A stretch of DNA of 63,477 nt, counting the filler, from Folioceros fuciformis (Eukaryota): the NCBI GenBank assembly GCA_049999805.1. It is 11 parts of 11 records of this genome, joined end to end, with 100 filler letters (N's around TTAATTAATTAA, not from the genome) between each part and the next. Parts side by side here need not be neighbours in the genome. Positions count along the whole stretch, not along the records: positions 25,996 to 37,660 come from JBNGIO010001784.1; 10 more parts are not named here. One strand, 5' to 3'. A program made the position numbers and the translations under genes. The notes under the pieces are model-generated. The model did no database searches. It had not been told where the DNA came from and saw only the letters and a list, made by a program, of their open reading frames with translations. Of this stretch, positions 18,566 through 41,871 are shown piece by piece. Each line of letters opens with the position of its first letter. The stretch's first letter is position 1.

Positions 18566-21500
18566 GAAATCACATTGCCATATTGGTCATGTGGGCACCA
18601 GTGATGCTCGTAAGTGCAGTTCATCTTCTTATCAACAGGCCTCCCTTGGTCTTTAATTGCAGTGGATGTCTTCGTCCTTATGCCTTTATGTATCTTGAAT
18701 ACTGTACAGATATACTTCATGGACATGCAGCTTTGGTACAGTGTTTTCTCCTCGTTTGTGGGAGCCCTTGTTGGACTCTTCCGCCATATTGGAGAGGTTC
18801 GTACTCTTAGCCTGTTGGCTGAGTGACTGAAGACTTCAAACCTGATGGTTAAAAGCATAGCCTGATGCGCAGTTGATGGTATTTCTTTATTTTTGCAACA
18901 ACTCATGTGCTCATTGTCTTTGAGGTTCTGTACTTGCAGATAAGGAGCGTGGCACAACTGGGAGAACGATTTAAGTTCTTTGCACAAATTTCGCAATTTG
19001 CACTTGTGGCCGAGAACAGTGTAAACGGGTCACGGTATGGCTCCAGCGATCTCTGATTTGGGTGCCTCTTTGCGTGATTGGGGATTCTGTCCCTCATGGT
19101 TTGCAAGATGGAATCGTTAGGGAGAAGCCCTTCATGCGCACCTGGAAGGAGTTTAGCAATAATCTGACGCGTGTCAAACTTCGATATGGGCTCCCGTGGT
19201 TGAGGCTCCAGGATGGCGACCTTGAACTGGTGCATTTCCATACTTGCCATCTATGTTAGAAAGAGTGCTTCAGGTTTCTTGAAGGTTGGATGGCTTGGCG
19301 GGGTAGTTTAACTAGGCGTGGGGGTGCTGACCACAGGAACCAGGAACCCTTGTTCTAACAAGGTTCATTATAATTTGGAATAAGATTCTGTCAATCTTTA
19401 GGGAGGAGGATATCATCAGTGACAGGTGGGATACACAACTTTTATCTCTTTTACACCTGTGTTCGTTTCTTACAGCTTTCAAGAAAAGGGTGCGATCTCT
19501 GTCACTATTTGCAAAGCAAAGCAATGCACTTATCATACCAAATAGAGGGCAAAACGATGGATGCTCATCACAGTGGAGATGCAGCCTGCCTTAATGGCTT
19601 CTTTTGATGTTGTGTCTTGGTTGGTGATAGGGAATTGGAGCTTCTGGAGATGCCTTCATCAGCGTGGAATATCCGTGTTGTACAGTGGCCAGGCATCCTG
19701 TTAAATAATTCGGTTGGTCTCTCGAGCGACCTTTTTCACCTAGTATCTAAGTAGTTTGTCTGCCCGCAGTATTGAGGGGTGTCTGCTCTGCAGGTATTGG
19801 TCATTCTTGGGCTACTTGAGAAGCACATGACGAAAGGTAAAGATGGAAAGGGCATATGGAGGAAGGTCTTGCAGAACAGGTACCAGAAGGCTGCATTACT
19901 TGAGAGTTATCAATCCATCTGCCACATCCTTCGCGGGATGGTGGTGCAGGGGACTCCAGAGCATACCCTCACGAAGATGATTTTGGAGGACATTGATTTA
20001 GCAATTGAGAACAGAAACTTCTTTGAGAAGTTTGAAGTAAAACGTCTGCACACAATTCACCAGAAGGTTGTGGAACTGGTGGAGGCCCTTCTCAAATGGA
20101 AGGATGGGAAAATAGCCAAGGCTAAGGTCTGATGTGCTTGTTTGTCTGTATTGGCGGAATTGTGAAATTGCATGCCAGTTGCTTCTGACTTGATGATGCG
20201 GCCTGATGTGATTCACAGGTAGTCACAGTTGTGCAGAATCTGTTCGACACTCTTATTCGGGATTTTCCTAGAGACCGGGGTGCTTACCCTTATAACAGCG
20301 TAGGCAATGGTCATGGTAACGTGTACCCTTTGAGAGCTGGTGGGCTGCTATTTGCAGCAGACGCTTCTCTCCAATTTCCAGCCAGCGAAGACACCTCCTT
20401 TTTCAAGCAACTGAAGCGACTACATACAACTCTGACCACGAAAGAGACACTTGCGAATGTACCACAGAATCTAGAGGCCAAAAGGAGGCTCGCCTTCTTT
20501 TCCAACTCAGTATTTATGCATATGCCTCGTGCTCCTCAGGTGGTCCTTGTTTGGAATTCAATCTTGGCTCTCTTCTTTTCGTTTGATTGAATCCTTACCA
20601 TCATGAGCGGCTGGTCCGGTGGTATGTGCAGGTTGATCGGATGCTAGGTTTCAGTGTCTTGACCCCTTATTACGAGGAGGCTGTCATGTACGGGGATGCT
20701 GAGCTAGAGGAGAAGACTGAAGACGGAGTGAGTACAATGTTTTACTTGAAAAAGATTTTCCCAGGTTTGTGCATGACCCCTCGATCGGATTGCAACTCAT
20801 GTTATTGATTGACCAAGGTGGCCTGAACCGACTTTATGGACGTACTCTTCAGATGACTGGAAAAATTTCGTAGAGAGAATGAAAACCACATACAATTTTC
20901 GTTCAGAGCGAGAGATTGAATCAACTGAAAAGGGCCTGTTTGAGCGTAGGCTGTGGGCATCTTACCGAGGACAGACCTTGGCACGAACTGTGCGTGGTAT
21001 GATGTATTATAGCAAGTACGTGCCACAAACATTTTCTTCATTGGTGTGCTGCAGTACTGAAAGATTACCAACTTTTGGGTGCCCTCTGTCAAGCTGGTGG
21101 GATCACATTCTCTGTCTTGGTTGGATGGGATCACAGGGCGCTGGAACTGTTAGCTTTTATTGATTGTGCATCAGAGTTGGAACTTAATGAAGCTCGGGAA
21201 GGAGGAGATCTGCAACGGTCAGGTGGTGCTGCGGACAGCACGTCCATGGGAGAACTTAGTGAGCGTCACAGAGAGGTTCATAGTGCTGCGGAAGAATATC
21301 ATGCAATGGCAGCGATGAAGTTCACGTATGTTGCGGCCTGCCAAGTATACGGGAAGCAGAAGGCCAAGAAGGCAAAGCAAGCAACAGAAATACAGTACTT
21401 GTTGAAGACCTATGAAGGGCTGAGAGTTGCTTACGTCGATGACAAAAATGGATCCTACTCTTCGGTTCTGGTAAAATACGACCGTGCCACACAGCGTGAG

Positions 21501-23845
21501 ATGGAGATTTACCGAGTAGAATTGCCTGGTCCATTGATTCTTGGAGAAGGAAAGCCTGAAAATCAGAATCATGCTCTGATCTTCACAAGAGGTGATGCAA
21601 TACAGACTATCGACATGAACCAGGTGCGATCCCAACACCTGTCCTTTCCCTCTTTGCTCGTGATTACTGATCTAGAGTACTCACCTCATTTTCCTTGATT
21701 ATGGTTCCAGGAAAACTACTTTGAAGAGGCTTTGAAGATGCGCAACCTTTTGGAAGAATTTCACACTGTCCATGGCAGAACAGTGCCAAGGATTCTAGGA
21801 GTGAGGGAGCATGTTTTCACTGGTGCAGTGTCGTCCTTGGCGAAGTTCATGTCTGCTCAGGAGACGAGCTTTGTGACACTGGGACAGCGTGTACTTGCAA
21901 CTCCTTTGAAAGTGCGTATGCACTATGGCCACCCGGACGTCTTTGACAGACTTTGGTTTTTGACTCGAGGTGGCATCAGCAAGGCTTCCAAAACGATCAA
22001 TATCAGTGAGGATATATTTGCCGGGTTTAACTGCACTGAACGTGGTGGAAATGTTACTCACCAGGAGTACATTCAGGTAAGTCTCGTAGTGTGCCCAGGC
22101 AGCAAACAGTTCCTGTGGCTTCATTAGTTGGTTGGTTGATTGGTTGGTTGGTTGGGTGACTCCTTGAGCTAATCGGACGAGTCATCTGTGACGATTGAGA
22201 CTTTTGTTGCCTCTGCTCTTGCAGGTTGGGAAAGGCCGGGATGTTGGATTAAACCAAATCTCCATGTTTGAGGGTAAAGTAGCGGGTGGAAACGGGGAAC
22301 AGGTTTTGAGCAGGGATGTTTACCGACTTGGGCACCATTTAGACTTCTTTCGGATGCTGTCATTCTATTACACAACAGTAGGGTTCTTTGTGAGCAACAT
22401 GACTGTGGTTCTCTGCGTCTATGCCTTTCTTTGGGGTCGAGTGTATTTGGCTTTAAGTGGAGTAGAATCGTCCATTGCGCATCTTGATAATAAGGCCATC
22501 TCCGCGTCCTTGAATCAACAGTTTCTGGTCCAATTGGGTATTTTCACAGCTCTCCCTATGGTTGTGGAGAACACCTTAGAAATGGGATTTGGGCAGGCTG
22601 CATGGCAGTTTGTTCTTATGCAGCTGCAGTTGTCATCCGTATTCTTCACGTTCTCTATGGGAACGAGGGCTCACTACTTTGGACGCACGATACTGCATGG
22701 AGGGGCCAAAGTAAGCTCCTAGAAGCCTACCCTTGTAGCATTTTCATGTGGTGAAGCCCCTGTTCGTGCGGTGCTAATGTATGCGGCATGTCTCATGCGC
22801 AGTATCGTGCCACTGGGCGAGGCTTTGTCGTCACTCACGAGAAGTTCGCTGAAAATTACCGTCTCTACTCTCGGAGTCATTTCGTGAAGGGGCTAGAGCT
22901 TGTTCTGCTTCTCGTTGTATACGAGTGTTTTGGGGTAAACAGTAGCTCGGTCGTATACATCCTGATAACAATTTCTAGCTGGTTCTTGGCATTGACATGG
23001 TTAATGGCTCCATTTGTGTTCAACCCCTCGGGATTTGATTGGCTGAAGACAGTGGAGGATTGGGAGGATTTCGGTCAGTGGATAATCTTCCGCGAGGTTG
23101 GATTTACTGACGCTAAGGTGAGCTGGGAAAGGTGGTGGGATGAGGAACAAGCCCATCTGAAGGACACTGGGCTTGTAGGCAAGGCAGTGGAAATTCTGCT
23201 CAACTGTCGGTTTTTCTTCTTCCAGTGGGGAGTTTGTTTCCGCCTCAATATCGCAGGTGGAAGGAAGGGTATAGGTGTGTACCTGATTTCTTGGGTCTAC
23301 CTGATTGTTGTAGCCGTATTAATAGGCATGTTCAACGTGTTGCGGGACAAGTATGGTGCCACACGGCATAGCTTGTACAGGCTGATCCAGCTGTTATACG
23401 CCGTGGGTGTGATATTGATCTTCGTTTTGTTGTCGACCTTGACAAACTTTGAGTTCGTTGATGTCTTCATTAGTTTTCTAGCTTTCGTTCCAACTGGATG
23501 GGCTCTCCTTCAAATAGCCCAGGTGGGTTGTTGATTGCTCTTGTTGGTGCTGTTTTTCGATTGCGGTGAGGTGTGCCCACTGGTATTAACAAGCGGTGCA
23601 CGCAGGTACTGAGACATCCGTTACTGGGAAGGAATACGAAAGTGTGGGGAATCGTAGTGGCGGTTGCGCGCCTGTATGAGTACGGAATGGGGGTGTTGGT
23701 CATGGTGCCGGTAGCAAGTCTATCGTGGCTCCCTGGCTTTCAGAACATGCAAACCCGAATAATGTTCAACGAAGCTTTCAGTAGGGGCCTGCACATCACG
23801 CAGATTCTGAGAGGGAAGAGCCCTAATTCCAACTTCACCTCCTAA
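18566..23845 (+). CDS. CalS: Callose synthase (1,3-beta-glucan synthase), GSL1/GSL5 (CalS11/12)-like; 5' part missing at the contig edge; about 14 GT-AG introns
   Basis: Exons encode WAPVML|IYFMDMQLWY, FREEDIISDR, EAKRRLAFFSNS, FSVLTPYY, LWASYRGQTLARTVRGMMYY, GEGKPENQNH, DMNQ, HYGHPDVFDR, SEDIFAG, VGKGRDVG and QTRIMFNEAFSRGL. TAA at 23843-23845. Confidence 0.96.
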
Positions 23846-26722: not shown

Positions 26723-28781
26723 TCAATTGCCTATGTTCCACCTCACCGTCTTTTTCTTCTTATACACAACTTCCTCCAAACCAACATATCGTTTCAGTCT
26801 ATTTGTGCCCTCATTCTCAGCAAAAGTTTCCAACACTTGTTTCCGCTGAGGTTGTTCGTTTGCCTGTGCCACTAATTGTCTCACCTTTTGTTGAGTTTGC
26901 TCCATAATGGAGGCTATCCCAAAAGATAAATGTGAATGCTCAAATGCGGTATCACATACTTCAGCACATGCCGTTTTAATAAAATCCAACCGTTTTTCTT
27001 TTGTCATCTCCAATTCTGTCTTACATATTGGTGCCACCAAGGGGTTACTAGGCAAGATGATGTGTGGAGCTTCTTCATCCTGCATCCAAAAAGCCATAGC
27101 TAAGTTGTTGGTATCACTACTTTCAGCAACATACGCTCCATTTGTTTTTCCATTTTGCCTAGCTGCTGCTGCACCATCCTTGTATATGCCAAGGAGTTGT
27201 TGAACTTTCACTATATGCTTGCAGATGAAACCTTTGTTCCCCACTGGACATGAGCATGTAGCCCAAGGAGAGTAAACATGTTCAATCACATACCACAAGT
27301 TAGGGATAATTGAGCTGATAGAAATAGTTTCTGCACCTTTCATAGCGGTTTGCTCCAAAGCCTCCAGCTTCTTGTTATGCCTGTATCCCCCTTCTTTCGT
27401 GAAGTGTTGGTACTAATAATGTCGGGCAACCACATTCACTAATTGGTGTAGTAACCAATCTAGTCTACGGCCAGGCAAACTTGACTTGCTAAATGCTGCA
27501 CGTTCTTTTATAAATCTATGGAATCCTTTCAAAACTGAAGTTGTATGTTGCCTTGCATGAGGCAACATTCTAGCATTACACAACCACATATCTATAGTCT
27601 CTCCCCATTGGACCTTCATATATCTCACAAAGTCTTCTTCACTTGTTTCCCACTTGTCACAAAAATTGTGTAGCATACTTCTTCCTATGGAAACATACTA
27701 TGAAGATGTGCTTGCCCTTGTGACATACATAATATCCCCTAGCTCTACCCATATTGAAATTCGATTACTTTGAGAGTGCACTTTCTTCAATAAATTCCGT
27801 CTCCACGCTTTTCGCACATGCCACAAACATAATAATATAGGCATATTATGATTCCACACTGAGCGAATAGCAGAAATCTCTGCTTGACAATCATCAACAA
27901 GGAATAAACTAAGCGCCCAATCCTTGTTGATCTTTTCAACCTTCTTCCGTAAAGCTGAAAGCCACCTGACAAGTGACTCAGTAGTAGCATCTTTTGTAAT
28001 AGCCCATGCTACTGGAACACCGTTCAAGTAATGGTCAAAACCCATCACAGTGAATAAGTGGTAGCGATACTTGTTCAATCCTAAAGTTGCATCCATAGCT
28101 AGCACATTACCATTCCCATAAAGCAAAATGCAATTTAACATAAAAGGAGTTTGAATGCCCAAAGCGAAAGGTTAATTCTCGCTTGATTGGTGGAAGACTA
28201 TAGACGCATTTTGCTCCAACCACAGGGACACTGATGTGGCATGATCCAGGCCTAGCTTCTATTCACTAACTTCAACTTGTGTAAGTATATTGAGAACATC
28301 ATATCTTTGCACATGATCATCTCTTACTAGCTCATATACCTTTGTCTGATTGTTGATTCGGGCCGTAAGAACACCAATACCTGCAAGCTAGCCACACAAT
28401 GTTAATGCCTCCCTAAGTAATAAAACAATTTGCATACTTCAAACCTTCTTACCTAACATATAATGCAGTTGTATGCACTGTCAATACTGCATGGCGAGGT
28501 AAACTCCCCGGCCCCTTAGAATCCTTCTTGTAGAAGTTCGTAGGATGGGAACTTATAGCACTCATTCCCCCAATAAAGTCTCCCACACTAGAAAAGAGTA
28601 TATAAGCCACCTTCACATGTTTTTGCTGCCCTGGTGTCCTAGAATGGTCATATTGAGAAGAAACCCAGTTTAGGTCAGTATGGTTAAATAACCCTAATTG
28701 AGGAACGTGCACCACAAAAGGTGTGTTAGTTGGTAACTCTTCTAAGTTAATACAAGAACTCAAATCCATATTATTATCCAT
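26723..28781 (-). mobile_element. Mutator-like (MULE) transposase with SWIM finger, disrupted
   Basis: AMDATLGLNKYRYHLFTVMGFD...GVPVAWAI, FLVDDCQAE, LLCLWHV and SWIM CSCPVGNKGFICKH, split over several ORFs. Confidence 0.88.
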
Positions 28782-29474
28782 AAATCACATTTCCCTATCC
28801 CAAAGAGAAAAAACCCTAACCCTAATCTCAACTTTTAACCAAAATCCCTATCCCTAATCATAAGAGTGCTTGAAAGCAAAGATTAAATATGCCGCTCTAA
28901 ACTCACATCTCACGCTATGCAAATGACGGGAGTTCACATACCATAAGCTGGTGAGCCAGGGTGGTGCACTTGGGAGCCTTAAACAAGTATTATTAGTAAC
29001 GTGTAAGCGGGTAGGGACGAGCAGCTTTCTCATGTCCCGTGTTGCTGGTATGTAGTGCACTGGTGTCAAAACTTTTGGCCACCAATTCGAATTATGCATG
29101 ACTCACCATTAGCATGGTGATGGGCAAGGACATACAGAGATACATGTCGTGGCCGTGGATGGCCGTGCGGACACACGTGCTGGCCTTATGGCCATCGGGT
29201 ATCCATTTGCAAGCTGTTGGTCTGGGGCATGTACTTAGCAAGCGTAATAGTTGCTCCTATACCACATTGCTGGTCTAGGGCATGTTCTTAGCAGCGTAGT
29301 AGTTGCTCCAATGCCACGTCATGCCATGCTGTGCTGCAGAGGGCATTGGCATGCTTAGCGTCCCCCCCAAATATAGGGCCTACAGGACTAGACTATTTGG
29401 CCTTGAAAAAGGTCGCCATTTGCAACCTGGCGTATGGAGGATGTTGGTATGCCGATGCCCTCTGCCCGGAAGCG

Positions 29475-29857
29475 CTGGAAGTAGCGGATGGGCGGCCTCT
29501 TGCGTACTATACCATTCAGAAGGAGGCAACTCGACATCTTGTGTCGCGTTTGAGGGGAGGAATGTAAATTTTTGTGAAGAATCTGACTGGCAAAACATTT
29601 TAGTTCAAGTGAGAGCTCGGATACCATTGATAAGTGTTAAAGCAGAACTCATGACAAGCAAGGTCTTCCTCTTGACCGGCAGGGCCTTATCGTTGCTGGC
29701 GAAGGGTTGGAAGATCGTCGCAACCTCGCAGATTACAACATGCAGAATGGTTGCTCTTGCAATAGAGGGCGGTGATAGAATCGACATTTTCACAACCAAC
29801 ATTCAGGACAAAGGGGGCATTCCACCTGACCAGCAATGTCTGGTAAGCCGCTGGTAG
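29475..29857 (+). pseudogene. UBQ: Decayed polyubiquitin (parts of three head-to-tail units)
   Basis: DGRPLAYYTIQKEATRHLVSRLRGG runs directly into M*IFVKNLTGKT (ATG 29562, TAA 29565), then GLEDRRNLADYNMQ and IQDKGGIPPDQQCL, with frameshifts. Confidence 0.9.
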
Positions 29858-30272
29858 TACTCTGTCAGGTTACAATCCGTATGTAGCCACAAGGAATCTT
29901 CTTTTCATCTTTTCTTGACTTCGAGAGGTAGTTTCTGGAGTGGAGGAGGAGGTTAGCCCTGAAAATGACCTCCACATAGTGAATTAGCTTGATGGATGTG
30001 AAAGTGGCCTGTTGATGGGCTGCAATACTTTTCGAGCAAGAACCACACCGATATTTCACTGGTGTAGAAGATCTCCTGAGCGCTCAGTCTCAGGTATATC
30101 GCTCATTTCTGGCTTAAGGAAAGTAACAAGAACCTTGCACCAGAGATAAGTAGCTCAGCCTCCTGCAGTAGAGGTTCCGGTGCATGGAACAGTCAAAACA
30201 GAAAAAAGTCATTTCCTCCGCTTACATCCTTAGGCACTGGCTATTAGTCCAATATTCGAGCATCCATTATTC

Positions 30273-32657
30273 TCAAGGCCGACCTTTACAACTACAACAA
30301 CCGGATGCGAATCGATGCACACGGTAACCATCCCTCACAACAATGTTTCTCTGTTCAAGCCTTGACATGATCTCCGTGGAACTGTGGCAATCAATGCACA
30401 TCCGCAGGTTCTTTGTTACCACCATAGGTGTCCCAATCGGAGTGTTTAAGAGACCAAATGCCAGAGCTAGCTTTTCAGCATGCCCACAAAGCGCATCCTC
30501 CTTTTCCTTCTCACACAGTGGCTTCAACACCAACTTTGTGCGAGGTACGTGGCCTCCTTCCTGCTTCAGACGGGCATTTATGCTATCTACCTTGAACACA
30601 ATATCCTCCCTTCTTTCTCCCACCACAAATCTATGTATCTCCTTTTTCACCTCGATGGTTGCCACTGCAGGTTTCTTGTTAGCTCCTGCTGCCCGTCTCT
30701 GCGTTTCAATCCTGTCTACATCGGTCCACCTACCTGCATCTGCGTATGCATTGGCCATAAGCACGTATGGGGGCGCCTGCAGGGGGTCCAGCCGGACAAT
30801 GTTTTCAAAACACCACGTCGCCCTCTCTAGATCCCCATAACTTTTGCATGAATTCAGCAAAGACATCAACCCCACGACATCACTTTGCCCCTCACATGAC
30901 AACAGCATCTTCTCAGCCTCAAGTAACTGACCCGCACGCCCAAGAAGATCAATCATACACGTGTAATGCTCAATTGTAGGTTTGATGCCATGCTGTTCAC
31001 CCATGGAATTGAAGTACTTGCGACCCTCGTGGACCAGTCCCTCATGACTACATGCGACTAAGAGACAAGTAAAAGTAGCACCATCAGGCTGAATACCAGC
31101 AACTAACATCTCCTCAAAGCAAGCTAGCGCCTTGTGCCCTTCATCAGAAATACCATACCCAGAGATCAGGGCAGTCCATGTCACCACGTCCTTTGTGGCC
31201 ATGCTGTCAAACACCTGGCGTGCAGTTTCAAGTTCACCACATTTTGCATACATTTCCACCAGGCAGTTGCCCACCAATACACTATTCAGCAGTCCGCTTC
31301 CCACAATCTTTGAGTGCAACTGCCTGCCCTTCTGTAAAGCACCGGTGCTTCCACAGGCTTTCAGAAGGCAGGCAAAAGTAACATGGTCAGCCAAAATGAG
31401 GCCCTCCTTCTCCATTTGTCCGTACAGAACAAGTGCCTCCTGTCCAAGATCTTGCTGTGCATATGCTGCAATCAGCGTTGTCCATGTGACCACATCCTTT
31501 GTGATCATGCTGTCAAAAACCCGACGTGCATCTTCAAGTTGGCCAAATTTTGCATACCCAGCAATCAAGGCATTCCATGTCACCACATCCTTTGTCTTCA
31601 TGCTGTCAAAAACCTGCCGCGCATCTTTCAGTTCGCCACATTTTGCGTACATGTCAACTAGGCAGGTGCCAAGGAACAAGTTAACAGGAATGCCACTACG
31701 CAGTACATCACAATGCACCTTTCTGCCAGACTCCAAGTCTGTGGCCAATGCACACGCTTGAAGGGCAGCTAGAAAGACATGCGCATCTGCCTTCACCTCT
31801 GATATACGCATCTCATGGTACAATCGTATGGCCTCAGTAGGTTTTCCATGCTTAGCATATGCAGAGATTATGGAAAACCACATGAAGACATTTGGTCTGC
31901 CCACTCTGGTGAACACATCCATGGCCTCCTGCAGACTACCCCCGCATGCATACATGCGCAAGATATGATTCCCCAAGTACGCATCCGACTCGTACCCGAA
32001 TTTGACAGTGAGGTCATGAACTCGTCGCCCCACAACCAGATCCTTCTTAGCTGTACACAACTTAAGCACAGTGTAAAACAGAGATTGAGAAATAGCAGAG
32101 TGTGCCAGCGCCAGGGATTCCAAGGCTTCAACGGCCTCATAAAGCTTGCCCTGCTGACATAACATGCTCACGGTTACAGCCGTAACGAGGCCCATTTCCG
32201 ATCCAGCATTCCTGCCAGCTTCAGGCTTGCCTGAAAAGCTATACCCGGAAGGAGAGGGGGCATGACCCATCTGCACATCCAAGGAAACCAGCTGCTCATC
32301 AACCCAAGACGGCTTGAGCGTGCTATTCAACCACAGCACCTCGCCGGACCCCTTACGCCGGAAGTCAGGCGAACGGGAGCTATACTTATCTCGTCTGTTG
32401 TCCCACCACATGGTAGGATCCAAAAAAAATTGTTCCCACAAGTGTTCCTGCTCCTGGCGACGACCATCGCAGGTCAAAACGTCCACACCCACACATTTTC
32501 TCAAAAGTGGAAATGCTGAGCTCTTCAAACTGTTGCACCTGGAGGCTTGGTGGATTGCAGGGATTTGACTCCCAGAAGTGAGATGAGCAGGAGCCCCTCC
32601 AAGAATCCCTGAACAAGCACCAATTCTTTGGGTCCACAGTAATCCCCGCCGACGCAT
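30273..32657 (-). CDS. PLS-class PPR protein with N-terminal OSB-type PDF motif and C-terminal E1-E2-DYW:KP (GRP-type) domain; putative organellar U-to-C RNA editing factor
   Basis: Intact intronless ORF, open to 33029, with the likely start MRRRGLL at 32657. It contains WEQFFLDPTMWWDNRRDK...SPDFRRK...LWL, about 13 P/L/S repeats, KKPAVATIEV, HAEKLA, RMCIDCH and the C-terminus CCSCKGRP*. Confidence 0.95.
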   Translation of the reverse strand: MRRRGLLWTQRIGACSGILGGAPAHLTSGSQIPAIHQASRCNSLKSSAFPLLRKCVGVDVLTCDGRRQEQEHLWEQFFLDPTMWWDNRRDKYSSRSPDFRRKGSGEVLWLNSTLKPSWVDEQLVSLDVQMGHAPSPSGYSFSGKPEAGRNAGSEMGLVTAVTVSMLCQQGKLYEAVEALESLALAHSAISQSLFYTVLKLCTAKKDLVVGRRVHDLTVKFGYESDAYLGNHILRMYACGGSLQEAMDVFTRVGRPNVFMWFSIISAYAKHGKPTEAIRLYHEMRISEVKADAHVFLAALQACALATDLESGRKVHCDVLRSGIPVNLFLGTCLVDMYAKCGELKDARQVFDSMKTKDVVTWNALIAGYAKFGQLEDARRVFDSMITKDVVTWTTLIAAYAQQDLGQEALVLYGQMEKEGLILADHVTFACLLKACGSTGALQKGRQLHSKIVGSGLLNSVLVGNCLVEMYAKCGELETARQVFDSMATKDVVTWTALISGYGISDEGHKALACFEEMLVAGIQPDGATFTCLLVACSHEGLVHEGRKYFNSMGEQHGIKPTIEHYTCMIDLLGRAGQLLEAEKMLLSCEGQSDVVGLMSLLNSCKSYGDLERATWCFENIVRLDPLQAPPYVLMANAYADAGRWTDVDRIETQRRAAGANKKPAVATIEVKKEIHRFVVGERREDIVFKVDSINARLKQEGGHVPRTKLVLKPLCEKEKEDALCGHAEKLALAFGLLNTPIGTPMVVTKNLRMCIDCHSSTEIMSRLEQRNIVVRDGYRVHRFASGCCSCKGRP

Positions 32658-33497
32658 CCCCTGGGCCTGGAGCGACGCCTGGAACAGCGTAGGGCAACTG
32701 CCAGTGCTATGTGGAAACGGGATGCGAACATAGATGTACATATCATGGGTATCATCCTCCTTGTCGTCAGGGTATGATGTACTTTCTGTTGGGAAAGATG
32801 GGAAAGAAGAAGTACTTCTTTCTTTCCCATCTTTATAAATAATGCGAGCTCCATTCGTGAATCGTGAGAATGGTACAGAACAGGATATGTACGAAGGACA
32901 CATTTTAGTCAATTGTTCATATTTGTGCGCAGGCAGCGTCAAGTCATTGGATCTCAAAAACGTGCTGCCGCTGTTCGTAAGCTGCACCCGTTTCGCCACA
33001 TCTGATCCAATTATCCCAGGTCTCCACATTATTCGTGATGGGGATATTCCAGGTGCGGCTTATGACTCACTACTAGTCTTACATTAGTTTTTCCTGGGTA
33101 TCTATGAGTGTCTTGGCTTTTGATTCCTCATTTTCCTATTTCCTCTTTGGGAAACGAACCAAACCGGACCCTCCACCAAAGGGGACACACAATTTGGAAG
33201 AGACAAGAAGGGGAGGAAACACCGCCTAGCCGTTCTCTTTCTAGTTCCTCACTTCCACATCAACACTGCAATCTCGCATGAAAGCTTTCATGTCTACTTT
33301 CTATGGTTGGGGACAACATCTAATTGGAATATGCTTTACGGTTTGGGTTAGAGGCAACGCTCATATTAGGATATGCCTTGTTATCTATGAATCCTTTGTT
33401 TCCGTTACCAACTAATGTTGTGAGAGTGCAAATCTGGGGGCCCAAATGAGACAAGTAGGAAGAACATAGGCAAACTGGATCACAAGGTGATTGTGGT

Positions 33498-34655
33498 TTT
33501 TTTTATCGTGAAGAAAAGAATTTTGATTAATATTGTCATCCTCTTACAATACTAACGGGACCCCTGCCTATGTATTTACATAGCATGAGTACCATGATCG
33601 GGAGAAAAAAACCGACCTCGTGTCCAGCCCTCTGGACAGGACGCGGAAAATGCTCCCCATCACCTGATATTAGCGGACTACTAAGACCATCTAGACGTAA
33701 ACCTCAAATTCACCTGAGGGCCATGGGGGCTCACCTTCCCCAAGGGCATGCATGATTCCAGTGATTGTCATTCCCAATAACTAGGAAGACCGCCGACCTC
33801 CATTCACTCCGCTTGAACTGTTTTCGATGAGACTGCCTCAAACTTTTCGCCGCAATTAGTAAATGCTCCCAAATGCACCATAGTAGAGCCTTAGATGAGG
33901 CTGGCTCATTACCTCCATAGACCACGGTAGACCAGTTGACCCAAAGATGAAAAAGGCACGAAGACCATAGTAAACCCCACCATTGCGACTGAAGTAGAGC
34001 TTTGCCCTAGGTTGCATCCAACCCAAATAGGGTAGTTTGCTTCGTGATCCTGAGGCTGGTATCAGGGAGAATCCTTTGCAACCAACTACCCACCTCATTC
34101 CATATCTCTTGGGCAAAACTACAATGGAAGATCGTGTGTTGGCTTTTGTTTGGGGCACCATAGGTACACAGTCAATACTGGTCTTCTCCCGTAGCAACCA
34201 ACAACCCATCCCGACGATCCGTGTTAGGCAAACAAGCTTTAAAAAGCACCAAACCGTCGCCCTAAACCTTGGGAGGAATTCCTACTGACTTCCAAAGCAA
34301 CTTGATAGCTTTTCTTTGTTGCCGCACAGATAGCTATAACCTGGGAGCCATTGATTGCCGTTGCTTGAGTTTCTACGCTCGTACCATCCAAAGGAAGATG
34401 TCCGTTGTTGGAAAGTTGAAAAAAGACCGAAGGTTTACTGCCTTGCACCTTGGCCTCCTGGGCCATTTGTAGAGATTTGGTCTTAAGGTCAAATCCCAAT
34501 TTTTCGCAAGCCGAAACCAACATTGTATGGCTGACTTGTCCGAGGTTTGTGGCCCACTAGAACGTTCGACTTGAGTGCACCACCGCCCTGCGCGAACAAA
34601 CTTAGAGAGAACCGTGTGTTGAAATAGCACCACAGGCCTAGAAGGACTCCACAAT
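33498..34655 (-). mobile_element. Degenerate LINE 3' end (zf-RVT-like region) with short A-tail
   Basis: Minus-strand translation with stops gives LLWKSVGIPPKV, QHTIFHCSFAQEIW and CLFHLW. A T-run at ~33498-33505 matches a poly(A) remnant. Confidence 0.6.
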
Positions 34656-34659
34656 TCCT

Positions 34660-37529
34660 TACTTATGGTGCACAGGATGCTACATATATAGCCTTCAGGC
34701 GGGGCAACCCTCGATAAGGTAAGCCTTAGTCTCGAGGGTGCAATATCCTAGTATATCCTGATATATCCTGATAACACTTAGGTAATAGATAACTACGAGT
34801 TCAATATGGGATAATCTACACTATCCTAAGTGTTGTATGCTCTTAATAACAATTCAGTTAGAGCTTGATTTCTAACACTCCCCCTCAAGCTCAGACTATT
34901 TGTAACACTTCAAGTAGTTCACGAAAGTGTAAGAACTTATCTCTACCTAGCGACTTAGTAAAGATATCTGCTACCTGGTCTTCGGTCTTCACGTGTCGAA
35001 GATCTATCTTCTCAGATAATACCGCTTCCCTGATGAAATGATAATGTACTTCTATGTGCTTCAAACGAGCATGAAACACAGGATTAGTAGCCAACCTCAT
35101 GCTACTCATGTTGTCACAGTAGATTGTAACCTTGCTGTTCACTATATTTCCAAGATCATGTAGCAACTTCTGCAACCAAGCTGCTTCACAGGCTACCATT
35201 GCAGCTCCTCGATACTCTGCTTCTGTGCTTAACAAAGCAACTGTCGGTTGTTTCTTGCTTTGCCAGCTGATCATACTACTTTCCAGACTGAATGCATATC
35301 CACTGGTTGATCTTCTGTCATACTCACAACCAGCCCAATCAGCATCTGTATATCCTGTCAGTTCAAGATGCTTCCTATGCTCATAGAGCAATCCAAACTC
35401 AGTAGTTCCTTTCACATATCTCATGATTCTTCTAACTGCATCCAAGTGCGGTTTCCTTGGGTTCCGCATGAATTGACTAATCAGTCCCACTGCATAACTT
35501 AAGTCAGGACGTGTGATAGTCAAGTAGATCAAACTTCCGACCATCTGTCGATACATAGTCACATTTTACAGCTCAGCTCCTACATCCATTTGTAGCTTGA
35601 CATCATTCTGCTCCAATGGTGTATCCATCGCTTTGCAATCTGCCATGCCATACTTCTGCAACATATCCTTAGCATATTGTTTTTGGAATAGCCAGATTCC
35701 TTGAGGTGTAGACACCACCTCAATTTCTAAGAAGTATCTAAGTTCACCAAGATCCTTCACCTTGAACTCTTTTGCAGATTCGCCTTGACATCTGCAATAC
35801 CATCTACATCATCTCCTGTGATGATCAGGTCGTCAACATAAACGACAAGACACACTTGTCCTACCTTGGTCTGTTTTACAAACAGACTGTGATCTGCGTC
35901 TCCAATCACAAACCCTCGCTCCTTCAAATAGCTTGTGATACGAGCATTCCATGCTCTAGGTGCCTGTTTGAGTCCATACAATGCCTTCTTCAGTTTGCAG
36001 ACGTATGTTGGAAACTTAGGATGAACATAGCCTTCAGGCTGTTCCATGTACACTTCCTCCTGCAACTCACCATTCAAGAAGGCATTCTTGACATCCATTT
36101 GCCATAACTTCCATCCTTTAGCTGCTGCTAATGCTAGGTCTGTCCTTACAGTTGTCATCTTGGCTACTGGACTAAAGGTTTCCTCATAATCAAGACCATA
36201 TTGTTGTCCATATCCCTTTGCAACCAACCTGGCCTTGTAACGCTCCAACGTTCCATCTGACTTGAACTTCAGCTTGTACACCCGCTTAGAACCAATAGGA
36301 ACCTTGCCATCAGGCAATTGAACCAAATCCCACGTTCCGTTCTCAACTAATGCTGAGTATTCTTCATCCATGGCTTGACACCACTTATCATTTGTCAACG
36401 CCTCAGCAAGCTTGGTTGTCCCCTAACAAGCTGTGACCCTTGTCATATACGCATAATGTTGGGCATTGTATCTTGTATAGGTGTACCTGTCAATGGGTTT
36501 CCTAACCCTCTCAGAGCTCCTTGGTCTTGGTTCATTTTAAACCTACCTTGCATATTGTTGCTCCTTAGCACCTGGCGTTTCCACAGACAGAATGCCAAAC
36601 TCACTGTCAATGCTCTCACTACTTGAGGATTCATATCCCTCATTTCCAGTTTTGCTGTTTTCTACTCTCCCCCTCACTGACATATCCGGGTCAGTGGTCT
36701 TCGTTTTACCATTCTGCAGTCTTCCAGACCATGGATTCACCGTTGGTGATCCACCATTGGTCACATCCTCACTCTTTGCTGGAGTACTCTTAACAGTACT
36801 CTCCCCTATGGGTTCGTCATAGGGTAGTGCAACTGAGTTGCTATACCAGGAGGCTAACTCATCAAATACCACATCCCTGCTTATCAGGATCTCATGTGTG
36901 GATGACACATAACACTTATATGCCTTCCTATTTCATGCATACCCCAGAAAAACACTCTTCACTGCTTTAGGATCCAGCTTCCTACGCTTCTCATCAGGTA
37001 CATGCACATATGCAATGCACCCAAACACTTTCAAGTGCCTAATATCTGGCTTATAGCCATACAGTTTCTTAATTGGTGTAGCATCATGAATTCCTGCCGT
37101 AGGAGTTCGATTTAGTACGTACACTGCTGTCATCACTACTTCTGCCCAATAATCATTAGGTAAGCACTTCTCATTCAGCATTGCCCTTGCTGTTTCCATG
37201 ACTACCCTGTTCTTCCTCTCTACAACACCATTCTGCTGTGGTGTGTATCTGCAAGTCAGCTGTCTTCGTATACCATGATCTGCAAGATACCTATCAAACT
37301 CATTTGAGACATATTCTCCCCATCCGTCTGATCTTAGACAAGAGATGGAGCAGCTGAATTCATTTTCAGCATGCTTTTTGAAGTCCTTGAAAGACTCGAA
37401 CACTTCATCCTTATGCTTCAGTATGTACAGCCACGTGTACCTGCTGAAATCATCAATGAAGGAGACATAGTAGTGGGCTCCTCCAAACGATGCATTCTGT
37501 GAAGGACCCCATACATCAGAGTGTATCAA
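34660..37529 (-). mobile_element. Ty1/Copia retrotransposon 3' half (integrase, RT, RNase H, PPT, partial 3' LTR)
   Basis: IHSDVWGP...ERKNR (integrase), YKARLVAKG, MDVKNAFL and VYVDD (RT), YTDADWAG...KHIEVHYHF (RNase H). PPT GAGGGGGAG at 34878-34886 is followed by TGTTAGA at 34877. Only a few frameshifts. Confidence 0.96.
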
Positions 37530-37782
37530 TTGGACAAGGAGGGGGAATGAGCGAGTGCCTCCTTGGCCCTCGGGTCATTGAGAACATTAAGGACCAGGTC
37601 TGTAGGTAGGTGAGTGGGGTATGTCCTTGGCCTTTGGTGGTCCGGGACCCCTTAGGTCTCNNNNNNNNNNNNNNNNNNNNNNNNNNNNNNNNNNNNNNNN
37701 NNNNTTAATTAATTAANNNNNNNNNNNNNNNNNNNNNNNNNNNNNNNNNNNNNNNNNNNNGGGTGGGAGTGAGAGTGTCGGG

Positions 37783-39557
37783 ATGGCAACCGTGTCGCTG
37801 GCGCTGGACTGGACTCCCAACACCAACCACATCGGATTCTATGTCGCCAAGAAACTCGGCTTCTACGACAAATGCGGCCTGAACGTGGAGCTTGTGAGCC
37901 CGCACCTGGACAATTACTCGGTCACGCCTGCCTCGAAGGTCGCATCCAAGGCTGCCAGTACGCTTCTGCATCCTTTCCCTTGTCTGGCAAGGCCAATTGT
38001 TCCTGTGAGCATGGCTGGGAGCAAGAGATTTCCAATTTCCGCTCCGCGCACGAGCCGCTTGTGGCGGATTGTTTGCTGCTGCCTCTTCTGTGTGTGCCTC
38101 TGCTGCTGCTGTCCTGGATTCGGGACCTTCTAGCCGCGCATCTTGTCGTATTGTACGTTTACTGCCTCTTCGTGTGGTGCTGGCGATGGTGCGAATGTGA
38201 TTCAGCGTTCGCTCTGGCACCGTCGGAAACGGTTGTCAGCTATCACTTGCCGCCATTCCGTGACGATCGGCCGAAGCTGGTGGCGGTTGCGGCTTGCCTG
38301 CAGGAGGATCTCAGTGCAATTGGTCGGTTCTGTGGTTTCCTTCTTTCCTGCTCGGGTTGTGGAGCACTGGAGGGAGTTGAGCGGAGCGCTTGATGAAGTT
38401 AAATGCTTGTGTCGTCGCAGTTACGCTGAAAAGCAGTGGCCTGAGCCGGCCCAAGGATCTGGACGGGAAGGTATATGCGTCCTATGGTGCCCGGTTCGAG
38501 GGCCGGATTGTGCAGCGGCTTATCCAAGCGGATGGGGGGAAGGGGGATTTTGTAGAGTCCACGCCAGCCAAGCTTGGCATTTGGAACACTCTGCTTGCAG
38601 GGGACGCTGATGCAACTTGGATCTTCAAAGGCTGGGAGGGCATCGTAGCTGAGTTGAAGCATGTTGAGCTCAACGAGTTCACCCTCGCTGATTACGGGTA
38701 AACGCCAGGAATTTGTCTTCACTTGAAGGAGTTCGGAGAAGTTTGTAACTTCTGATGGTATCTCTGCGATGCAACTTCTGACAGTTGGTTCTTGGCTCTC
38801 GGATACAGTATTCCCTATGGATACACTCCTGTGGTTTTAGTGCATCCTGACACCTTGCGGTATATGCTGAACCTTCTCGCATCTTGTGGGCACCTTGTGT
38901 GCTTCAGGTCTTTCGTTTGACTCATGTTTTGGTTCAGCGATTCTCCAGATTTGGTCAAGCAGTTCCTCAAAAACTCTGCAGCAGGTTTTGAGTACGCCGC
39001 TTTGCATCCTGACCAGGCAGCCGCCCTCTTGCTTGTGAGCAACCCCTCACCAACTCTTCAGGACAAAGATGCTGGAAGTTGTAAGGGAATTGTGGGTTCA
39101 GTGCGCGCTTGGTTTGACTTGGTTCTCTCTTCAGGAATGTGCAAATGCTGAGAATCCTCGTCTACTCGAGCCTCTAGATCCAGCAGTGGTTTTGGAGGCG
39201 TCGCGACTGCTGTCAAAGCATTTTGTAGATTTAGCGGAAGGAGGTATTCTAATGGGGGCAACCCATCTTAGGTTTTATATCCTGGTTTGGTTGCGATTCT
39301 GCCTTATGATGGATCTTCCTCGTGTGGAAAATGCAGGTATGAAGTGGGGTATAATGGCTGTGTCTAAGTGGGAGAAGTATCTCGATTGGCTTGCAACAGA
39401 AGGTCTGCTCACTGACCGCATCCAGTCCAGAAATCCTGTGCCTGGAGAGAGTGTTTCTCTCGCGGAGCTTAGAGAAGGGAACGCAGGGACACAGATTCCA
39501 AGGGCTTTATTGGTTGTTACAAACTTATTCACAAATGATTTCTTACCTTCACATTGA
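37783..39557 (+). CDS. NMT1/THI5-like (SsuA/ThiY-type binding-protein fold) protein, 7 exons
   Basis: [67 protein letters not shown] and LFTNDFL. GT-AG junctions keep the frame (37957/38206, 38322/38421, last exon from 39337). Confidence 0.88.
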
Positions 39558-39697
39558 GCAAGATAGGTGGTAACACTTATTACAGAATTGCAAGGTAATA
39601 CTTGTCACAAAATTGTACTAGCAACAAATATAGTGTACAATTTTCAACAAATGTGTTGAATCATACACATCGTCTTGTTGATGGTTATTGAAACACT

Positions 39698-41871
39698 TCA
39701 GTTGCGCTTTTCCTTTCCAAAAAATTGTTTTCTCAGTTTCACTGCGCAGCAATAGTAAGCCGCCAGTAACTGCAACACAAGCACAACTGCGCACGTCCGG
39801 CATGGTGAGGAAGACAGCATTGTTTTGAACACGAACTCGAGTTGTTCTGGCCTTCTGAACATTAGGAAATACCAGAGAGAAGCCCGAAGCAGAGAATAGC
39901 CATAAAATACTTCTTATCCCACGGTAAATCTGTCTCAAGTGTGCAATGTCGATGAACTCCCTTCGACCGTAATGGTCTTCTCCCGAACTGTTGGGCTTGT
40001 AGTTGCGAGAGAGGAATCCTCTTCGTGAGCACAGGTTTGCCATTGACATCCCTAACTTCTGCTTTGATAATCGCTGGATTTGAATCCCACTCAAAATCTA
40101 AAGTCCCAAAGTTCTGCTTCCCTACAATACCATAAATCGTTGAATCACGTCAAGCAGTGAACTACTGGAACAAGCTATCCAAGCACATGATTCTGGCAAG
40201 CGTAGAGAAGCCCATACCGTAAACACACGATCGGTACTTGCACTCGCTGTTGTACACTCGCATCGTATTTGGCATAACCCAGGCCGAAAACCGTAACAGA
40301 AATGCCACAAACGATGGAACATTGTTCTCTACCGCTTGCGTTAATCCACTTGAAGTGATGTCATATAGAGGATAGCTAGTGGCACAGTCAAACCGATTGA
40401 TTTCGCCAAAATGCACGTCGCCGCTGATGAAGATGATTCCACTGACCTGCATGAACGAACAAGTCAGCATCATACATCCACGCTCCCTCCCGATTTCACT
40501 GGACTTTTTTCCTTGCACGTTCGATGACACTGCAGTGCATTCATCAAAATAAACTTACGTTGGTATCAGCGATCAGCTTCAAAAGTCGTGTGCGCTCATC
40601 TGGGAAGTTGCCCCAAGATTCTACATGGAAAAAAGGCTGAATTGTGGCTGAGAAGTTCGATAACACCTGCGGCATGAACTAAAACATTCAGAAAACTGAA
40701 ACGGACCTGATATCAGCTACGATAATCAGAAAACTACCTGGATCGACGATGCTATCAAGTTAACTTGTGCATTACTGCTCCTTAATTCTGCCTCAAACCA
40801 AGTCCATTGAACTTCACCGAGTATGTCCCCATTGCTCCGTAAGGGATCCCTGTGATACCTGGTGTCCAGAAGAATAACCTAAGTTGAAAGACTGCTTTAG
40901 AATAACTTTGTGACCATGTCAGAAATCAGACAAGTACTCCAGCACTACAAACATGATCCGCGACCTTTCCAAGTGGGTGAAGCACGTGTACTACCTTAAT
41001 TTGCTTCCCAACGGGCCCAAATGTGTACGAGGTATACACACCCTCCTGCCGTCGTCTGCATAGTGACATGGTAGTCAGGAACAGAACTGCTAACCCATAA
41101 GCTGCAGTAGAAAAAATGCGGGCATGTCATGCAGAGTTACCTTGGACTATTCCTCGGTTCGTCCAGAAAGTCAAGCATGTTCTTCTGACTGGTCTCTTTC
41201 ATATGAAACTCCTTTCCAGCATCATTCAGGCCATAGTCATGATCATCCCATGTACCGATAATCTGTCAAAACAACAACTTCATTATTTCCACAGGCAAAG
41301 GTTTCCTCAACAGGGATGGCAGGCTAGAAGCGAACACCGACAAGAAGAGTCAAGCACACCACATTCACCTTAGCTTTCTCCCTCAATTCCTTATAACCAG
41401 GGATGTTCTTGGCCTTATTGTACTTCCACTCCATCATCTCACTTGAAACGGGCAAGAACCGAGACTTCTTTTTCCATGGACCAATGTTACTGTCCTTCCC
41501 CATAAATTGAGTGGGGAGTTTTGTGTCTCCGTAGATGTTATCCCCTAGCCATATGAATAATTGTGGATCATACTCCACAATCGCTGTCCAAATTGGCTGC
41601 AAAGCATAGCAACAGCAACTGCTTCCGTAATTCCAGCAACTCGTGAGCGTCATCAGTCTCCACGATCAAACGAGAGAACGAGCAGGTCTAGGAAAAACAT
41701 TGCTCCAGGCGGAAGCCGAACCTGAGCAACGCTTTGATTCGCACAGGAACCAAAAGCAATTCTGGTGAACGGTTTTGGAACTTGCAGACTGAAGTCGAAA
41801 CACAAGCCTCCCTCCCAAGACGAAAGAATCAACACTGAAAGCGGAAGAAGAATACATGCCCTTATCTTCAT
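39698..41871 (-). CDS. PhoD-like alkaline phosphatase D family protein, multi-exon, with signal peptide and C-terminal hydrophobic segment
   Basis: [62 protein letters not shown] and [10 protein letters not shown]. Predicted stop TGA at 39700-39698. Confidence 0.92.

Follow-up and report, generated by a model that had tools for sequence, protein, structure and literature searches.

A predicted U-to-C RNA editing factor of Folioceros fuciformis carries an N-terminal PDF motif of the OSB type

The Folioceros fuciformis genome (GCA_049999805.1) contains an open reading frame that joins a PDF motif, known from OSB proteins, to an RNA editing factor of the PPR-DYW:KP type. The gene is almost certainly intact, intron-free and nuclear, and its product can be identified with the same high confidence, part by part, as a PLS-class PPR-E1-E2-DYW:KP protein of the 'GRP' subtype. 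Homology searches identify the motif as a true homologue of the OSB PDF motifs, and the collected protein sequences identify the N-terminal PDF as a widespread accessory module of PLS-type, editing factor-like PPR proteins in non-seed land plants. PDF motifs and DYW:KP editors are each already known; among the collected proteins, the two are combined in this one alone.

The gene is located on the minus strand at positions 30273–32657 of the window (the whole stretch of DNA that was analyzed, 63,477 nucleotides in length), in the part that comes from JBNGIO010001784.1. The coding frame consists of 794 codons and a TGA stop codon (30273–30275) without the need for an intron, and it translates to 794 residues and a stop with zero interruptions. 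Given this open frame, the Pfam matches and the residue reading described below, the sequence-only reading was correct in placing the PDF motif and the PLS-E1-E2-DYW:KP region in one uninterrupted ORF. An intron-less structure is typical of PLS PPR genes. The first-ATG ORF covers 30273–33029 (minus strand, 918 residues), and the stop-to-stop frame covers 30273–33059. Because no stop codon closes the frame between this point and an earlier ATG at 33029, the ATG at 32657 is regarded as a putative start. The in-frame upstream stretch (32658–33029, minus strand; 124 codons from the earlier ATG) is not PPR-, PDF- or OB-like in Pfam and HMM searches and is probably a 5' leader rather than coding sequence. 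No contig from the matching public runs lies on 32797–33529 and next to none on 32671–32796, but these pieces are 146–443 nt long and are not evidence on the start site. The flanks of the gene are occupied by transposon remnants, with a copia-type RVT_2 and integrase at 35.8–37.6 kb and a MULE transposase at 27.7–28.2 kb. An LTR search beside the copia remnant yielded no direct repeats of at least 80 nt.

The PLS-class PPR array spans residues 157–593 (30879–32189, minus strand) and contains 13 motifs of 31–36 residues. In a manual table that was used along with Pfam, the motifs are arranged as P1-L1-S1, P1-L1-S1, SS, P1-L1-S1 and P2-L2-S2, with approximate boundaries (±2 residues). Pfam detects PPR (1.3e-59) and PPR_2 (2.7e-56) in the 918-residue frame, and a sequence search of the PDB matches the synthetic PPR-DYW protein 9kfx (8e-193). 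The array is followed by the E1 motif (residues 594–627; 30777–30878, minus strand) and the E2 motif (residues 628–661; 30675–30776, minus strand), both assigned by Pfam and the manual table. The Pfam E_motif match (3.5e-14) spans E1 and E2 and covers profile positions 1–63 of 63. The C-terminal DYW:KP deaminase-like domain (residues 662–794; 30276–30674, minus strand) is 133 residues long and is recognized by Pfam as DYW_deaminase (8.4e-31). It opens with KPAVATIEV, in which a KPAVA box replaces the PG box; KPAxA is the consensus of the KP box. The zinc-binding HxE...CxxCH signature is present as HAEKLA at residue 726 and CIDCH at residue 754, and a CSC is also found. Position 88 of the domain is occupied by Lys, and the C-terminus is GRP, not DYW. 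On this reading of the residues, all of the catalytic and zinc-binding residues of the domain are in place. KP-type domains differ from DYW:PG in the PG box, in an Ala within HxE, in a length of 132–133 residues, in the conserved Lys88 and in a C-terminus other than DYW, which is GRP or DRH in hornworts. The HAE sequence, the GRP ending and the 133-residue length are KP-type traits, and a GRP subgroup is reported from hornworts, according to the accessible part of PMC9478123. Lys88 is described as essential for U-to-C activity in the accessible part of PMC11845758. The DYW:KP architecture therefore marks the protein as a candidate site-specific organellar U-to-C RNA editing factor.

The N-terminal region preceding the array is composed of a presequence, the PDF motif and a linker. 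Residues 1–60 (32478–32657, minus strand) form a basic, Ser/Gly/Leu-rich presequence with 8 Lys/Arg, 9 Ser/Thr and a single acidic residue (Asp/Glu). By composition only, this stretch is transit peptide-like, in agreement with the earlier description of the N-terminus, and it is a putative organellar targeting peptide. The PDF motif begins only about 12 residues past the presequence. Its core, residues 73–119 (32301–32441, minus strand; LWEQFFLDPTMWWDNRRDKYSSRSPDFRRKGSGEVLWLNSTLKPSWV), was matched by phmmer, an OSB-only HMM and BLASTP, and the HMM envelope extends over approximately residues 61–133 (32259–32477). The 47-residue core contains 9 Phe/Trp/Tyr and 8 Lys/Arg residues and is accordingly rich in aromatic and basic residues. 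It matches the pattern W..P..WWDNR..K.....PDF.HK.....LW.....P.WV over about 50 residues with the core kept except at His36, which is replaced by Arg. Thus, the motif reads RRK at a place where the His of K-H-K is found in 91% of PPR-linked PDFs. A six-frame scan with the PDF HMM detected one PDF in the window. The motif is connected to the PPR array by a 37-residue linker rich in Ser, Gly, Pro and Ala (residues 120–156; 32190–32300, minus strand), which is probably a flexible tether.

The relationship of the motif to OSB proteins was assessed using an HMM built solely from PDFs of OSB-type proteins (196 motifs from 80 proteins). With this OSB-only HMM, the ORF reached 74.1 bits over residues 68–129 (HMM positions 3–63 of 64), whereas the highest score among 1000 shuffled sequences was 2.3 bits. 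This result supports the OSB-type identity that had been proposed for the motif. In a BLASTP comparison, Populus OSB1 shares 47% identity with the motif region over 66 residues (E 1e-18). A phmmer search of 1.84 billion representatives with residues 60–135 retrieved 604 proteins at E≤1e-3 and 173 at E≤1e-10, including proteins that NCBI names OSB1 and OSB3. Pfam includes no PDF model and returned nothing for the N-terminal part of the 918-residue frame, and a PDB sequence search with the PDF found no relative (best E 0.42). The lack of a PDF model in domain databases is probably why large fusion surveys of editing factors omit the motif. The search for an OB-like domain used an HMM that started from two proteins with the names OSB1 and OSB3 and was extended by one round of the listed matches; it gave no match in the six frames of the window, including the ORF (best score −5.6), and Pfam found no SSB domain in the ORF. 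Since the ORF contains no OB fold, the protein is not an OSB.

In addition to the window's protein, 59 PDF-PPR proteins were collected, all with one to three PDFs N-terminal to the PPR array. The 54 proteins with a named source derive from Diphasiastrum (42 rows), Sphagnum (7), ferns (4) and Selaginella (1). None of these 54 comes from a seed plant, consistent with the earlier statement that angiosperm editing PPR proteins do not normally carry the motif. The architecture is common in these lineages and is not a rarity. Because the PDF occurs on dozens of PPR proteins from mosses, lycophytes and ferns, it is a widespread module and not a one-off. Public annotation describes these proteins only as hypothetical or as PPR proteins, and a full-text search of main articles found no published description of a PDF in PPR proteins. 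When the window's protein is included, the PDFs lie N-terminal to the array in 60 of 60 proteins, with the last PDF ending at or before residue 343, and two to three tandem copies are present in 26. The DYW domain is of the DYW:PG type in 16 of the 60, not recognizable in 43 and of the DYW:KP type in the window's protein alone, so the special link between the PDF and U-to-C editors implied at the outset is not supported. Full DYW_deaminase domains are found in Diphasiastrum P0198 and P0210 and Sphagnum P0240 and P0242. The database matches also include PDF-only proteins with tandem arrays of 4–13 copies.

The whole-protein alignment profile of 209 positions includes a PPR-like stretch, at about positions 146–187, that matches designer PPR proteins. 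For this reason, its E-values and the PPR share of its matches (49 of 52) are skewed in favor of PPR proteins, and the assignment of a PDF to these matches rests on the PDF-only and OSB-only HMMs. With a crude PPR-motif HMM, none of the 139 non-PPR matches turned out to be a further PPR protein. A word-index search with the motif region matched only P0004, and one with residues 40–330 matched nine PPR proteins, with PDFs in P0004 alone. With so few matches, the database is evidently poor in close relatives of the source organism. Close relatives of the PPR array (P0182–P0186) lack a PDF.

The PDF core is defined in the HMM by W9, P16, W19, W20, D21, R23, K26, P32, D33, F34, K35, K37, L43, W44, P50 and W52. 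These residues are equally conserved in 91 PPR-linked and 202 OSB-linked PDFs and are held at 90–100% in the PPR-linked copies, which come from mosses, lycophytes and ferns. The equal conservation argues that the same biochemical function may have been kept and that the motif would be part of the mature protein. In a FastTree tree of 395 rows, which is poorly resolved for a motif of ∼60 residues, the PPR label needs 10 changes, compared with 15.8 after shuffling. An AU test on a 36-row subset, likewise limited to the ∼60-residue motif, gave a p-AU of 0.163 for one origin of the PPR-linked PDFs, which neither rejects nor shows such an origin. In four public runs, position 32382 inside the PDF-coding part is covered by 45, 94, 86 and 66 contigs of at least 85% likeness, and the differences shared by these contigs shift codons towards the family consensus. 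The contig depth and the shared differences indicate that close relatives of the PDF-coding stretch are multi-copy in those samples. None of the listed contigs bridges the PDF and the first PPR motif, but pieces of 146–443 nt have no bearing on whether the two share one mRNA.

We propose that the PDF functions as a sequence-unspecific single-strand nucleic-acid anchor that acts in cis on the editor, a reading to which we give an even chance. In this scheme, the PPR array would recognize RNA sequence lying upstream of the target U, with the chemistry left to the DYW:KP domain. A flexible linker of ∼37 residues would hold the PDF at the array end facing the 5' side of the RNA, and the PDF would contribute sequence-unspecific binding of single-stranded nucleic acid in cis. 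The sequence-only reading had likewise suggested unspecific single-strand affinity or a nucleoid or R-loop tether as possible roles. In reviews, the PDF is considered responsible for ssDNA binding and is sufficient for it in AtOSB1 (PMC6963530, PMC4166229, PMC6451138). The anchor could operate in two ways. The PDF may clamp the RNA 5' of the PPR footprint and raise affinity or the on-rate, which is conceivable but short of likely and is weakened because AtOSB1 and AtOSB2 reportedly prefer ssDNA over RNA (PMC4166229). With slightly lower probability, it may hold the editor on the ssDNA of transcribing nucleoids, where the editor would meet nascent RNA. According to the accessible part of PMC9478123, the designer proteins KP2, KP3 and KP6 are active in U-to-C editing in E. 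coli and in human cells although they contain no PDF; the motif is therefore dispensable for catalysis. The RRK of the window's copy, in place of the common K-H-K, also speaks against the anchor.

Instead of binding nucleic acid, the PDF might be a protein–protein or oligomerization module that links an editor with other editors, with OSB proteins or with some further partner, an option also raised in the sequence-only reading. In the absence of DNA, both AtOSB2 and AtOSB3 elute as tetramers, with the responsible domain unstated (PMC6451138), and seed-plant editing factors operate in multi-protein editosomes, as described in the accessible part of PMC13386178. However, the reviews assign ssDNA binding to the PDF itself, and its conserved core shows the aromatic and basic character of single-strand binders. 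Moreover, the PDF-only arrays of 4–13 copies suit a repeated nucleic-acid-binding unit better than a dimerization domain, and we consider such a module unlikely. The PDF could also be a relic that contributes nothing to the mature editor, either removed along with the targeting peptide or retained passively from an ancient capture of an exon or domain. The short distance to the 60-residue presequence, the function of designer KP proteins without a PDF (accessible part of PMC9478123) and the PDF-free relatives P0182–P0186 fit a relic. Targeting peptides, however, are unconserved in sequence, in contrast to a core held at 90–100% in 91 copies, and the tandem duplication to two or three PDFs in 26 of the 60 proteins also speaks against a relic, which we judge improbable. 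The least probable view, a silent recent retrocopy or pseudogene whose architecture currently serves no function in F. fuciformis, could draw on the intron-less gene between transposon remnants and on the 22 matching public runs, none of which is on record as RNA (contigs, kind guessed), but it is opposed by the fully open 794-codon frame and by catalytic residues, zinc-binding residues and a PDF core that are all in place.

The cis anchor that we favor could be extended into a broader reading, although we hold this to be quite unlikely. In this extension, the PDF would be an ancient built-in single-strand anchor that is needed for efficient in vivo editing in hornworts, mosses, lycophytes and ferns and was given up in seed plants upon the emergence of trans-acting MORF helpers. 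In the accessible part of PMC13386178, MORF is described as a factor that acts in trans and is confined to seed plants. The complementary spread of MORF and of the PDF-PPR proteins (0 of 54 from seed plants) fits such an ancient helper but does not show it. If the extension is true, the weakly active designer DYW:KP proteins would be expected to gain in U-to-C editing once PDF copies are grafted on them.

The fusion links two organelle systems that are usually treated apart, OSB-based genome maintenance and PPR-based RNA editing, through a shared nucleic-acid-binding motif. To our knowledge, programmable U-to-C RNA editing can be reached only through PPR-DYW:KP proteins. Designer KP proteins are inefficient for reasons left unexplained in the accessible part of PMC9478123, and the PDF, as an extra module conserved on natural editors, is an obvious subject for study.

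The window's protein resembles several known systems in part. It shares with OSB proteins a PDF motif of ∼50 residues and putative organellar targeting, and OSB proteins contain one to four copies of the motif. In OSB proteins, however, the PDFs are located C-terminal to an SSB-like OB fold, whereas the PDF of the window's protein is N-terminal, is preceded by no OB fold and is followed by a PPR-DYW editor. The RRM-PPR fusions, ORRM proteins and MORF helpers are similar in that a general binding or helper module serves a PPR editor, but the module is an RRM or MORF and not a PDF. RRM-PPR fusions have been catalogued across plants in PMC13386178, the accessible part of which contains 0 occurrences of the words OSB and PDF. 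The other PDF-PPR(-E/-DYW:PG) proteins share the presequence, one to three PDFs, the PLS array and the E motifs with the window's protein, but their DYW domain is of the C-to-U type (HSE, ending in DYW) or absent. No natural KP protein had been characterized by 2025, according to the accessible part of PMC11845758. The hornwort 'GRP' PPR-DYW:KP proteins and designer KP2 and KP3, as presented in the accessible part of PMC9478123, have the PLS array, P2-L2-S2-E1-E2 and a 133-residue DYW:KP domain with HAE, Lys88 (PMC11845758), CxDCH and GRP in common with the window's protein. The designer proteins begin at the PLS array, with an N-terminal PDF unmentioned in that part of the source, whereas the window's protein places a PDF motif ahead of the array.

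The open reading frame at 30273..33029 (-) encodes 918 amino acids counted from its first ATG (928 codons stop to stop). From the ATG at 32657, a putative choice of start, it continues for 794 residues without a break, in agreement with the uninterrupted frame described in the sequence-only reading. The resulting protein, P0001, contains a PDF motif at residues 73-119 (window 32301-32441) and a 37-residue, Gly/Ser/Pro-rich linker that connects the motif to the PPR array. Pfam matches on the ORF (PPR, 1.3e-59; PPR_2, 2.7e-56; E_motif, 3.5e-14; DYW_deaminase, 8.4e-31) agree with the motif order read manually (P1-L1-S1, P1-L1-S1, SS, P1-L1-S1, P2-L2-S2, E1, E2), and both support the PLS array and E1/E2 motifs proposed earlier. 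Pfam assigned no family to the N-terminal 150 residues of the ORF. The transit peptide-like character noted for the N-terminus holds for composition (8 Lys/Arg, 1 acidic and 9 Ser/Thr in residues 1-60), which suits a putative organellar presequence; its targeting role stays putative. In the PPR code, T/D specifies G, N/D specifies U and N/N specifies a pyrimidine. Under this code, the sequence predicted for the P and S motifs, upstream of the target, is roughly ..Y..GUG.UG.G.

DYW:KP domains were reportedly defined in Gutmann 2020 and Gerke 2020. The last 133 residues of P0001 start with KPAVATIEV, contain HAEKLA and CIDCH, carry Lys at position 88 and end in GRP. One study describes a highly conserved Ala as the middle residue of HxE in KP proteins and divides hornwort KP proteins into 'DRH' and 'GRP' subgroups, named for the final three residues (PMC9478123). 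U-to-C activity needs Lys88 of the 132-133-aa KP domains, according to another study, in which the activity of natural KP proteins is still unknown (PMC11845758). Because its KP-type residues, Lys88 and GRP ending match these published criteria, the P0001 gene qualifies as a well-formed candidate for U-to-C editing within the GRP subgroup, a membership suggestive of a hornwort-like source. The DYW:KP assignment is thus borne out by the KPAVA start, HAE, Lys88, CIDCH, GRP end and 133-aa length.

Judged from sequence comparison, the N-terminal motif is a real PDF motif, homologous to those of OSB proteins. When residues 60-135 were compared by phmmer with 1.84 billion cluster representatives, 604 proteins reached E<=1e-3, of which 173 also reached <=1e-10 and 19 <=1e-30. 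Among the best 150 of the 604, which were examined, are the NCBI-named OSB1 of Populus (P0035, 2.8e-23) and OSB3 of Chenopodium (P0006, 2.8e-49). BLASTP against P0035 gave 47% identity over 66 residues (E 1e-18), with a second match to the other PDF of that protein. An OSB-only HMM was built from 196 PDFs of 80 listed proteins with an OSB-type OB-like N-terminal region. As the HMM comparison suggested by the sequence-only reading, it scored 74.1 bits on the ORF (i-E 2.8e-25; residues 68-129, model positions 3-63 of 64), against 2.3 bits for the best of 1000 shuffles of P0001. Six-frame scanning of the whole window found a single PDF and no OB-like domain. Pfam holds no model for the PDF motif and gave only weak SSB matches on named OSBs; a PDB sequence search with the motif found no relative (best E 0.42). 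At residues 100-102 (window 32352-32360), P0001 has Arg-Arg-Lys in place of the family Lys-His-Lys, whose His is present at 0.91 in PPR-linked and 0.74 in OSB-linked PDFs. Review statements on the OSB PDF motif are said to go back to Zaegel 2006. According to reviews, OSBs carry one to four PDFs, each of 50 aa, C-terminal to their OB-like fold; ssDNA binding is attributed to the PDF, and AtOSB1 and AtOSB2 prefer ssDNA over dsDNA or RNA (PMC6963530; PMC4166229; PMC6451138).

In these searches the fusion of PDF and PPR is widespread, and it is not confined to U-to-C editors. The best 150 of the 604 phmmer matches comprise 80 OSB-like proteins, 11 PPR proteins (Adiantum, two; Ceratopteris; Pteridium; Selaginella; Diphasiastrum, two; Sphagnum; Logan assemblies, three) and 59 that are neither, namely short fragments and arrays of PDFs alone, with at most 11 copies. 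In two fragments, P0146 and P0133, the start of a PPR motif follows the PDF. A profile search of a 5.8-billion-protein index, limited to proteins of 712-2030 aa, gave 52 matches, 49 of them with PPR Pfam domains; the others were P0002 (Kingdonia), P0221 (Cuscuta) and P0241 (Leersia). The search profile included a PPR-like stretch, so its E-values are not PDF-only and its matches are biased to PPR proteins; the 50 new proteins were therefore re-scored with a PDF-only HMM. This identified 48 as PPR proteins of the PLS type that carry 1-3 PDFs N-terminally (Diphasiastrum complanatum, 40 rows with 39 locus tags; Sphagnum, 6 rows; JGI, 2 rows), and the OSB-only HMM recovered 91 PDFs in the PPR set.

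The PDF-PPR set, shaped by search design and database proteome content, comprises 60 proteins including P0001. One PDF is found in 34, two in 20 and three in 6, always N-terminal of the PPR array (60/60), with the last PDF ending at aa <=343. Sixteen have a DYW:PG C-terminus (HSE, ending DYW), P0001 alone has DYW:KP, and the 43 without a recognisable DYW are E-type or truncated models. Pfam detected PPR, E and DYW_deaminase in P0198, P0210, P0240 and P0242, and PPR and E in P0195 and P0231. The proposed pairing of PDF with DYW:KP thus stands for P0001 itself but not as a tie to U-to-C editing (16/60 DYW:PG versus 1/60 DYW:KP). As expected from the earlier remark that angiosperm editing PPRs normally lack the motif, none of the 54 organism-named PDF-PPR proteins comes from a seed plant; with searches that were not exhaustive, this argues only weakly that seed plants lack the fusion. 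The Pteridium protein is recorded under a name of the kind given to contigs from de novo transcript assembly, from which we infer that PDF and PPR share a single mRNA in this fern. The databases searched seem to lack most hornwort proteomes, since the closest relative is just 54% identical within the motif.

PDFs also occur outside OSBs and PPRs as free-standing repeat proteins, because proteins of nothing but tandem PDFs were found: P0003, P0007, P0011, P0013 and P0014 consist of 4-11 PDFs after a short N-terminus, and one of them belongs to the volvocine green alga Astrephomene gubernaculifera. Angiosperm models (the P0036, P0047, P0221 and P0002 group) combine PDF with a kinesin motor (Coptis), with 'ICR2' and SSB (Striga) or with a Ty3 capsid and SSB (P0221, Cuscuta), or contain 13 PDF stretches matched by phmmer, 12 by a stricter count (P0002, Kingdonia). 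Such draft gene models probably reflect either the merging of adjacent genes or recent duplication.

Trees inferred from the ~60-aa motif have poor resolution. PPR-linked PDFs group beyond chance expectation, with 10 changes of the PPR label versus 15.8 in shuffles (0/500 as low). FastTree places the P0001 motif together with 9 PPR-linked PDFs in a group of 11 rows (support 68), and a quick IQ-TREE run unites 10 of 16 PPR-linked PDFs in one clade (SH-aLRT 81). An AU test on 36 rows (14 PPR-linked PDFs and every third of 66 others, excluding the long-branch rows P0122_d1 and P0055_d2) did not reject a single clade (p 0.163). One ancient capture of the PDF by PPR proteins is possible.

Contigs of four public sequencing runs (X1, X2, X4 and X18) were placed on window 29773-33529. 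Thousands, at 85-99% likeness, cover the PPR-DYW part and also the PDF-coding part, each too short to join the two physically. At 32382, inside the PDF, an alternative letter is common to 45, 94, 86 and 66 contigs, respectively. The best-supported codon differences in the motif are one synonymous change, the replacement of Ser117 by Ala, and a change at the third position of codon 92, a site with Lys or Arg as family consensus. Sequences close to the PDF-coding stretch are therefore multi-copy in these samples, as would be expected if many paralogous editors carried a common PDF module.

The aromatic and basic PDF core is equally conserved in PPR-linked and OSB-linked copies, which argues for a biochemical function retained in the mature PPR protein. 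PPR arrays bind RNA with the N-terminal end toward the 5' side. The PDF, on its 37-residue linker, would therefore lie at the footprint's 5' edge, where it may act in cis as a sequence-unspecific anchor for single-stranded nucleic acid, a reading to which we give an even chance. An RNA clamp is a tentative form of this anchor; a ssDNA or nucleoid tether enabling co-transcriptional editing is a slightly less favoured one. Against the anchor stand the RRK in place of KHK in P0001, the preference of OSBs for ssDNA over RNA (PMC4166229) and designer KP proteins that edit without any PDF (PMC9478123). A protein-interaction or oligomerisation module, in line with the tetramers that OSB2 and OSB3 form (PMC6451138), is unlikely. 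That the PDF is a relic or a cleaved segment is improbable given the equal conservation of its core, and a silent retrocopy, with the frame intact from 32657, is more improbable still.

Directly 5' of the PPR gene is a Ty1/copia-type remnant (33800-37600, -) with RVT_2 (35760-36422, -; 3.6e-60) and integrase rve plus SH3_retrovirus (36936-37574, -; Pfam); an LTR search of 32600-40500 found no direct repeats >=80 nt. On the 3' side, a Mutator-like element or FAR1-type gene (26726-28171, -) contains a MULE transposase domain (27701-28171, -; 6.1e-14) and a weak Pfam SWIM zinc finger (26726-27412, -). The ORF at 29303-29857 (+) ends in a ubiquitin-like stretch (..IQDKGGIPPDQQ..), and an X18 contig continues at 29841 with letters reading IFAGKQLEDG. 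Pfam had no match on this ORF; an exon of the ubiquitin family, interrupted by an intron or a break at that point, is the probable reading. A 1,3-beta-glucan (callose) synthase is represented by exons at 21003-23531 (+; PF02364, 3.5e-36 and 2.7e-32) and, together with the other neighbouring genes and elements, identifies the window as nuclear plant DNA. Also present are a legume-lectin domain ORF (5911-6759, -; 4.5e-26), an RVT_1 reverse-transcriptase fragment (7754-8479, +; 5.4e-20) and a retroviral-type aspartyl protease ORF (54506-55570, +; RVP_2 2.2e-11, gag-asp_proteas 4e-11), which is another retroelement remnant.

Public databases list PDF-PPR proteins as 'hypothetical' or 'PPR-containing'. 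In a full-text literature search, just three papers used 'PDF motif' in connection with organelles and none tied it to PPR proteins; an earlier mention may exist. The PDF module is directly testable on poorly performing U-to-C designer editors. A survey from 2026 of domain fusions in editing factors across the plant kingdom contains 0 occurrences of 'OSB' and 'PDF' and places MORF in seed plants only (PMC13386178). PDF-PPR proteins, found here in non-seed plants, and MORF have complementary distributions.
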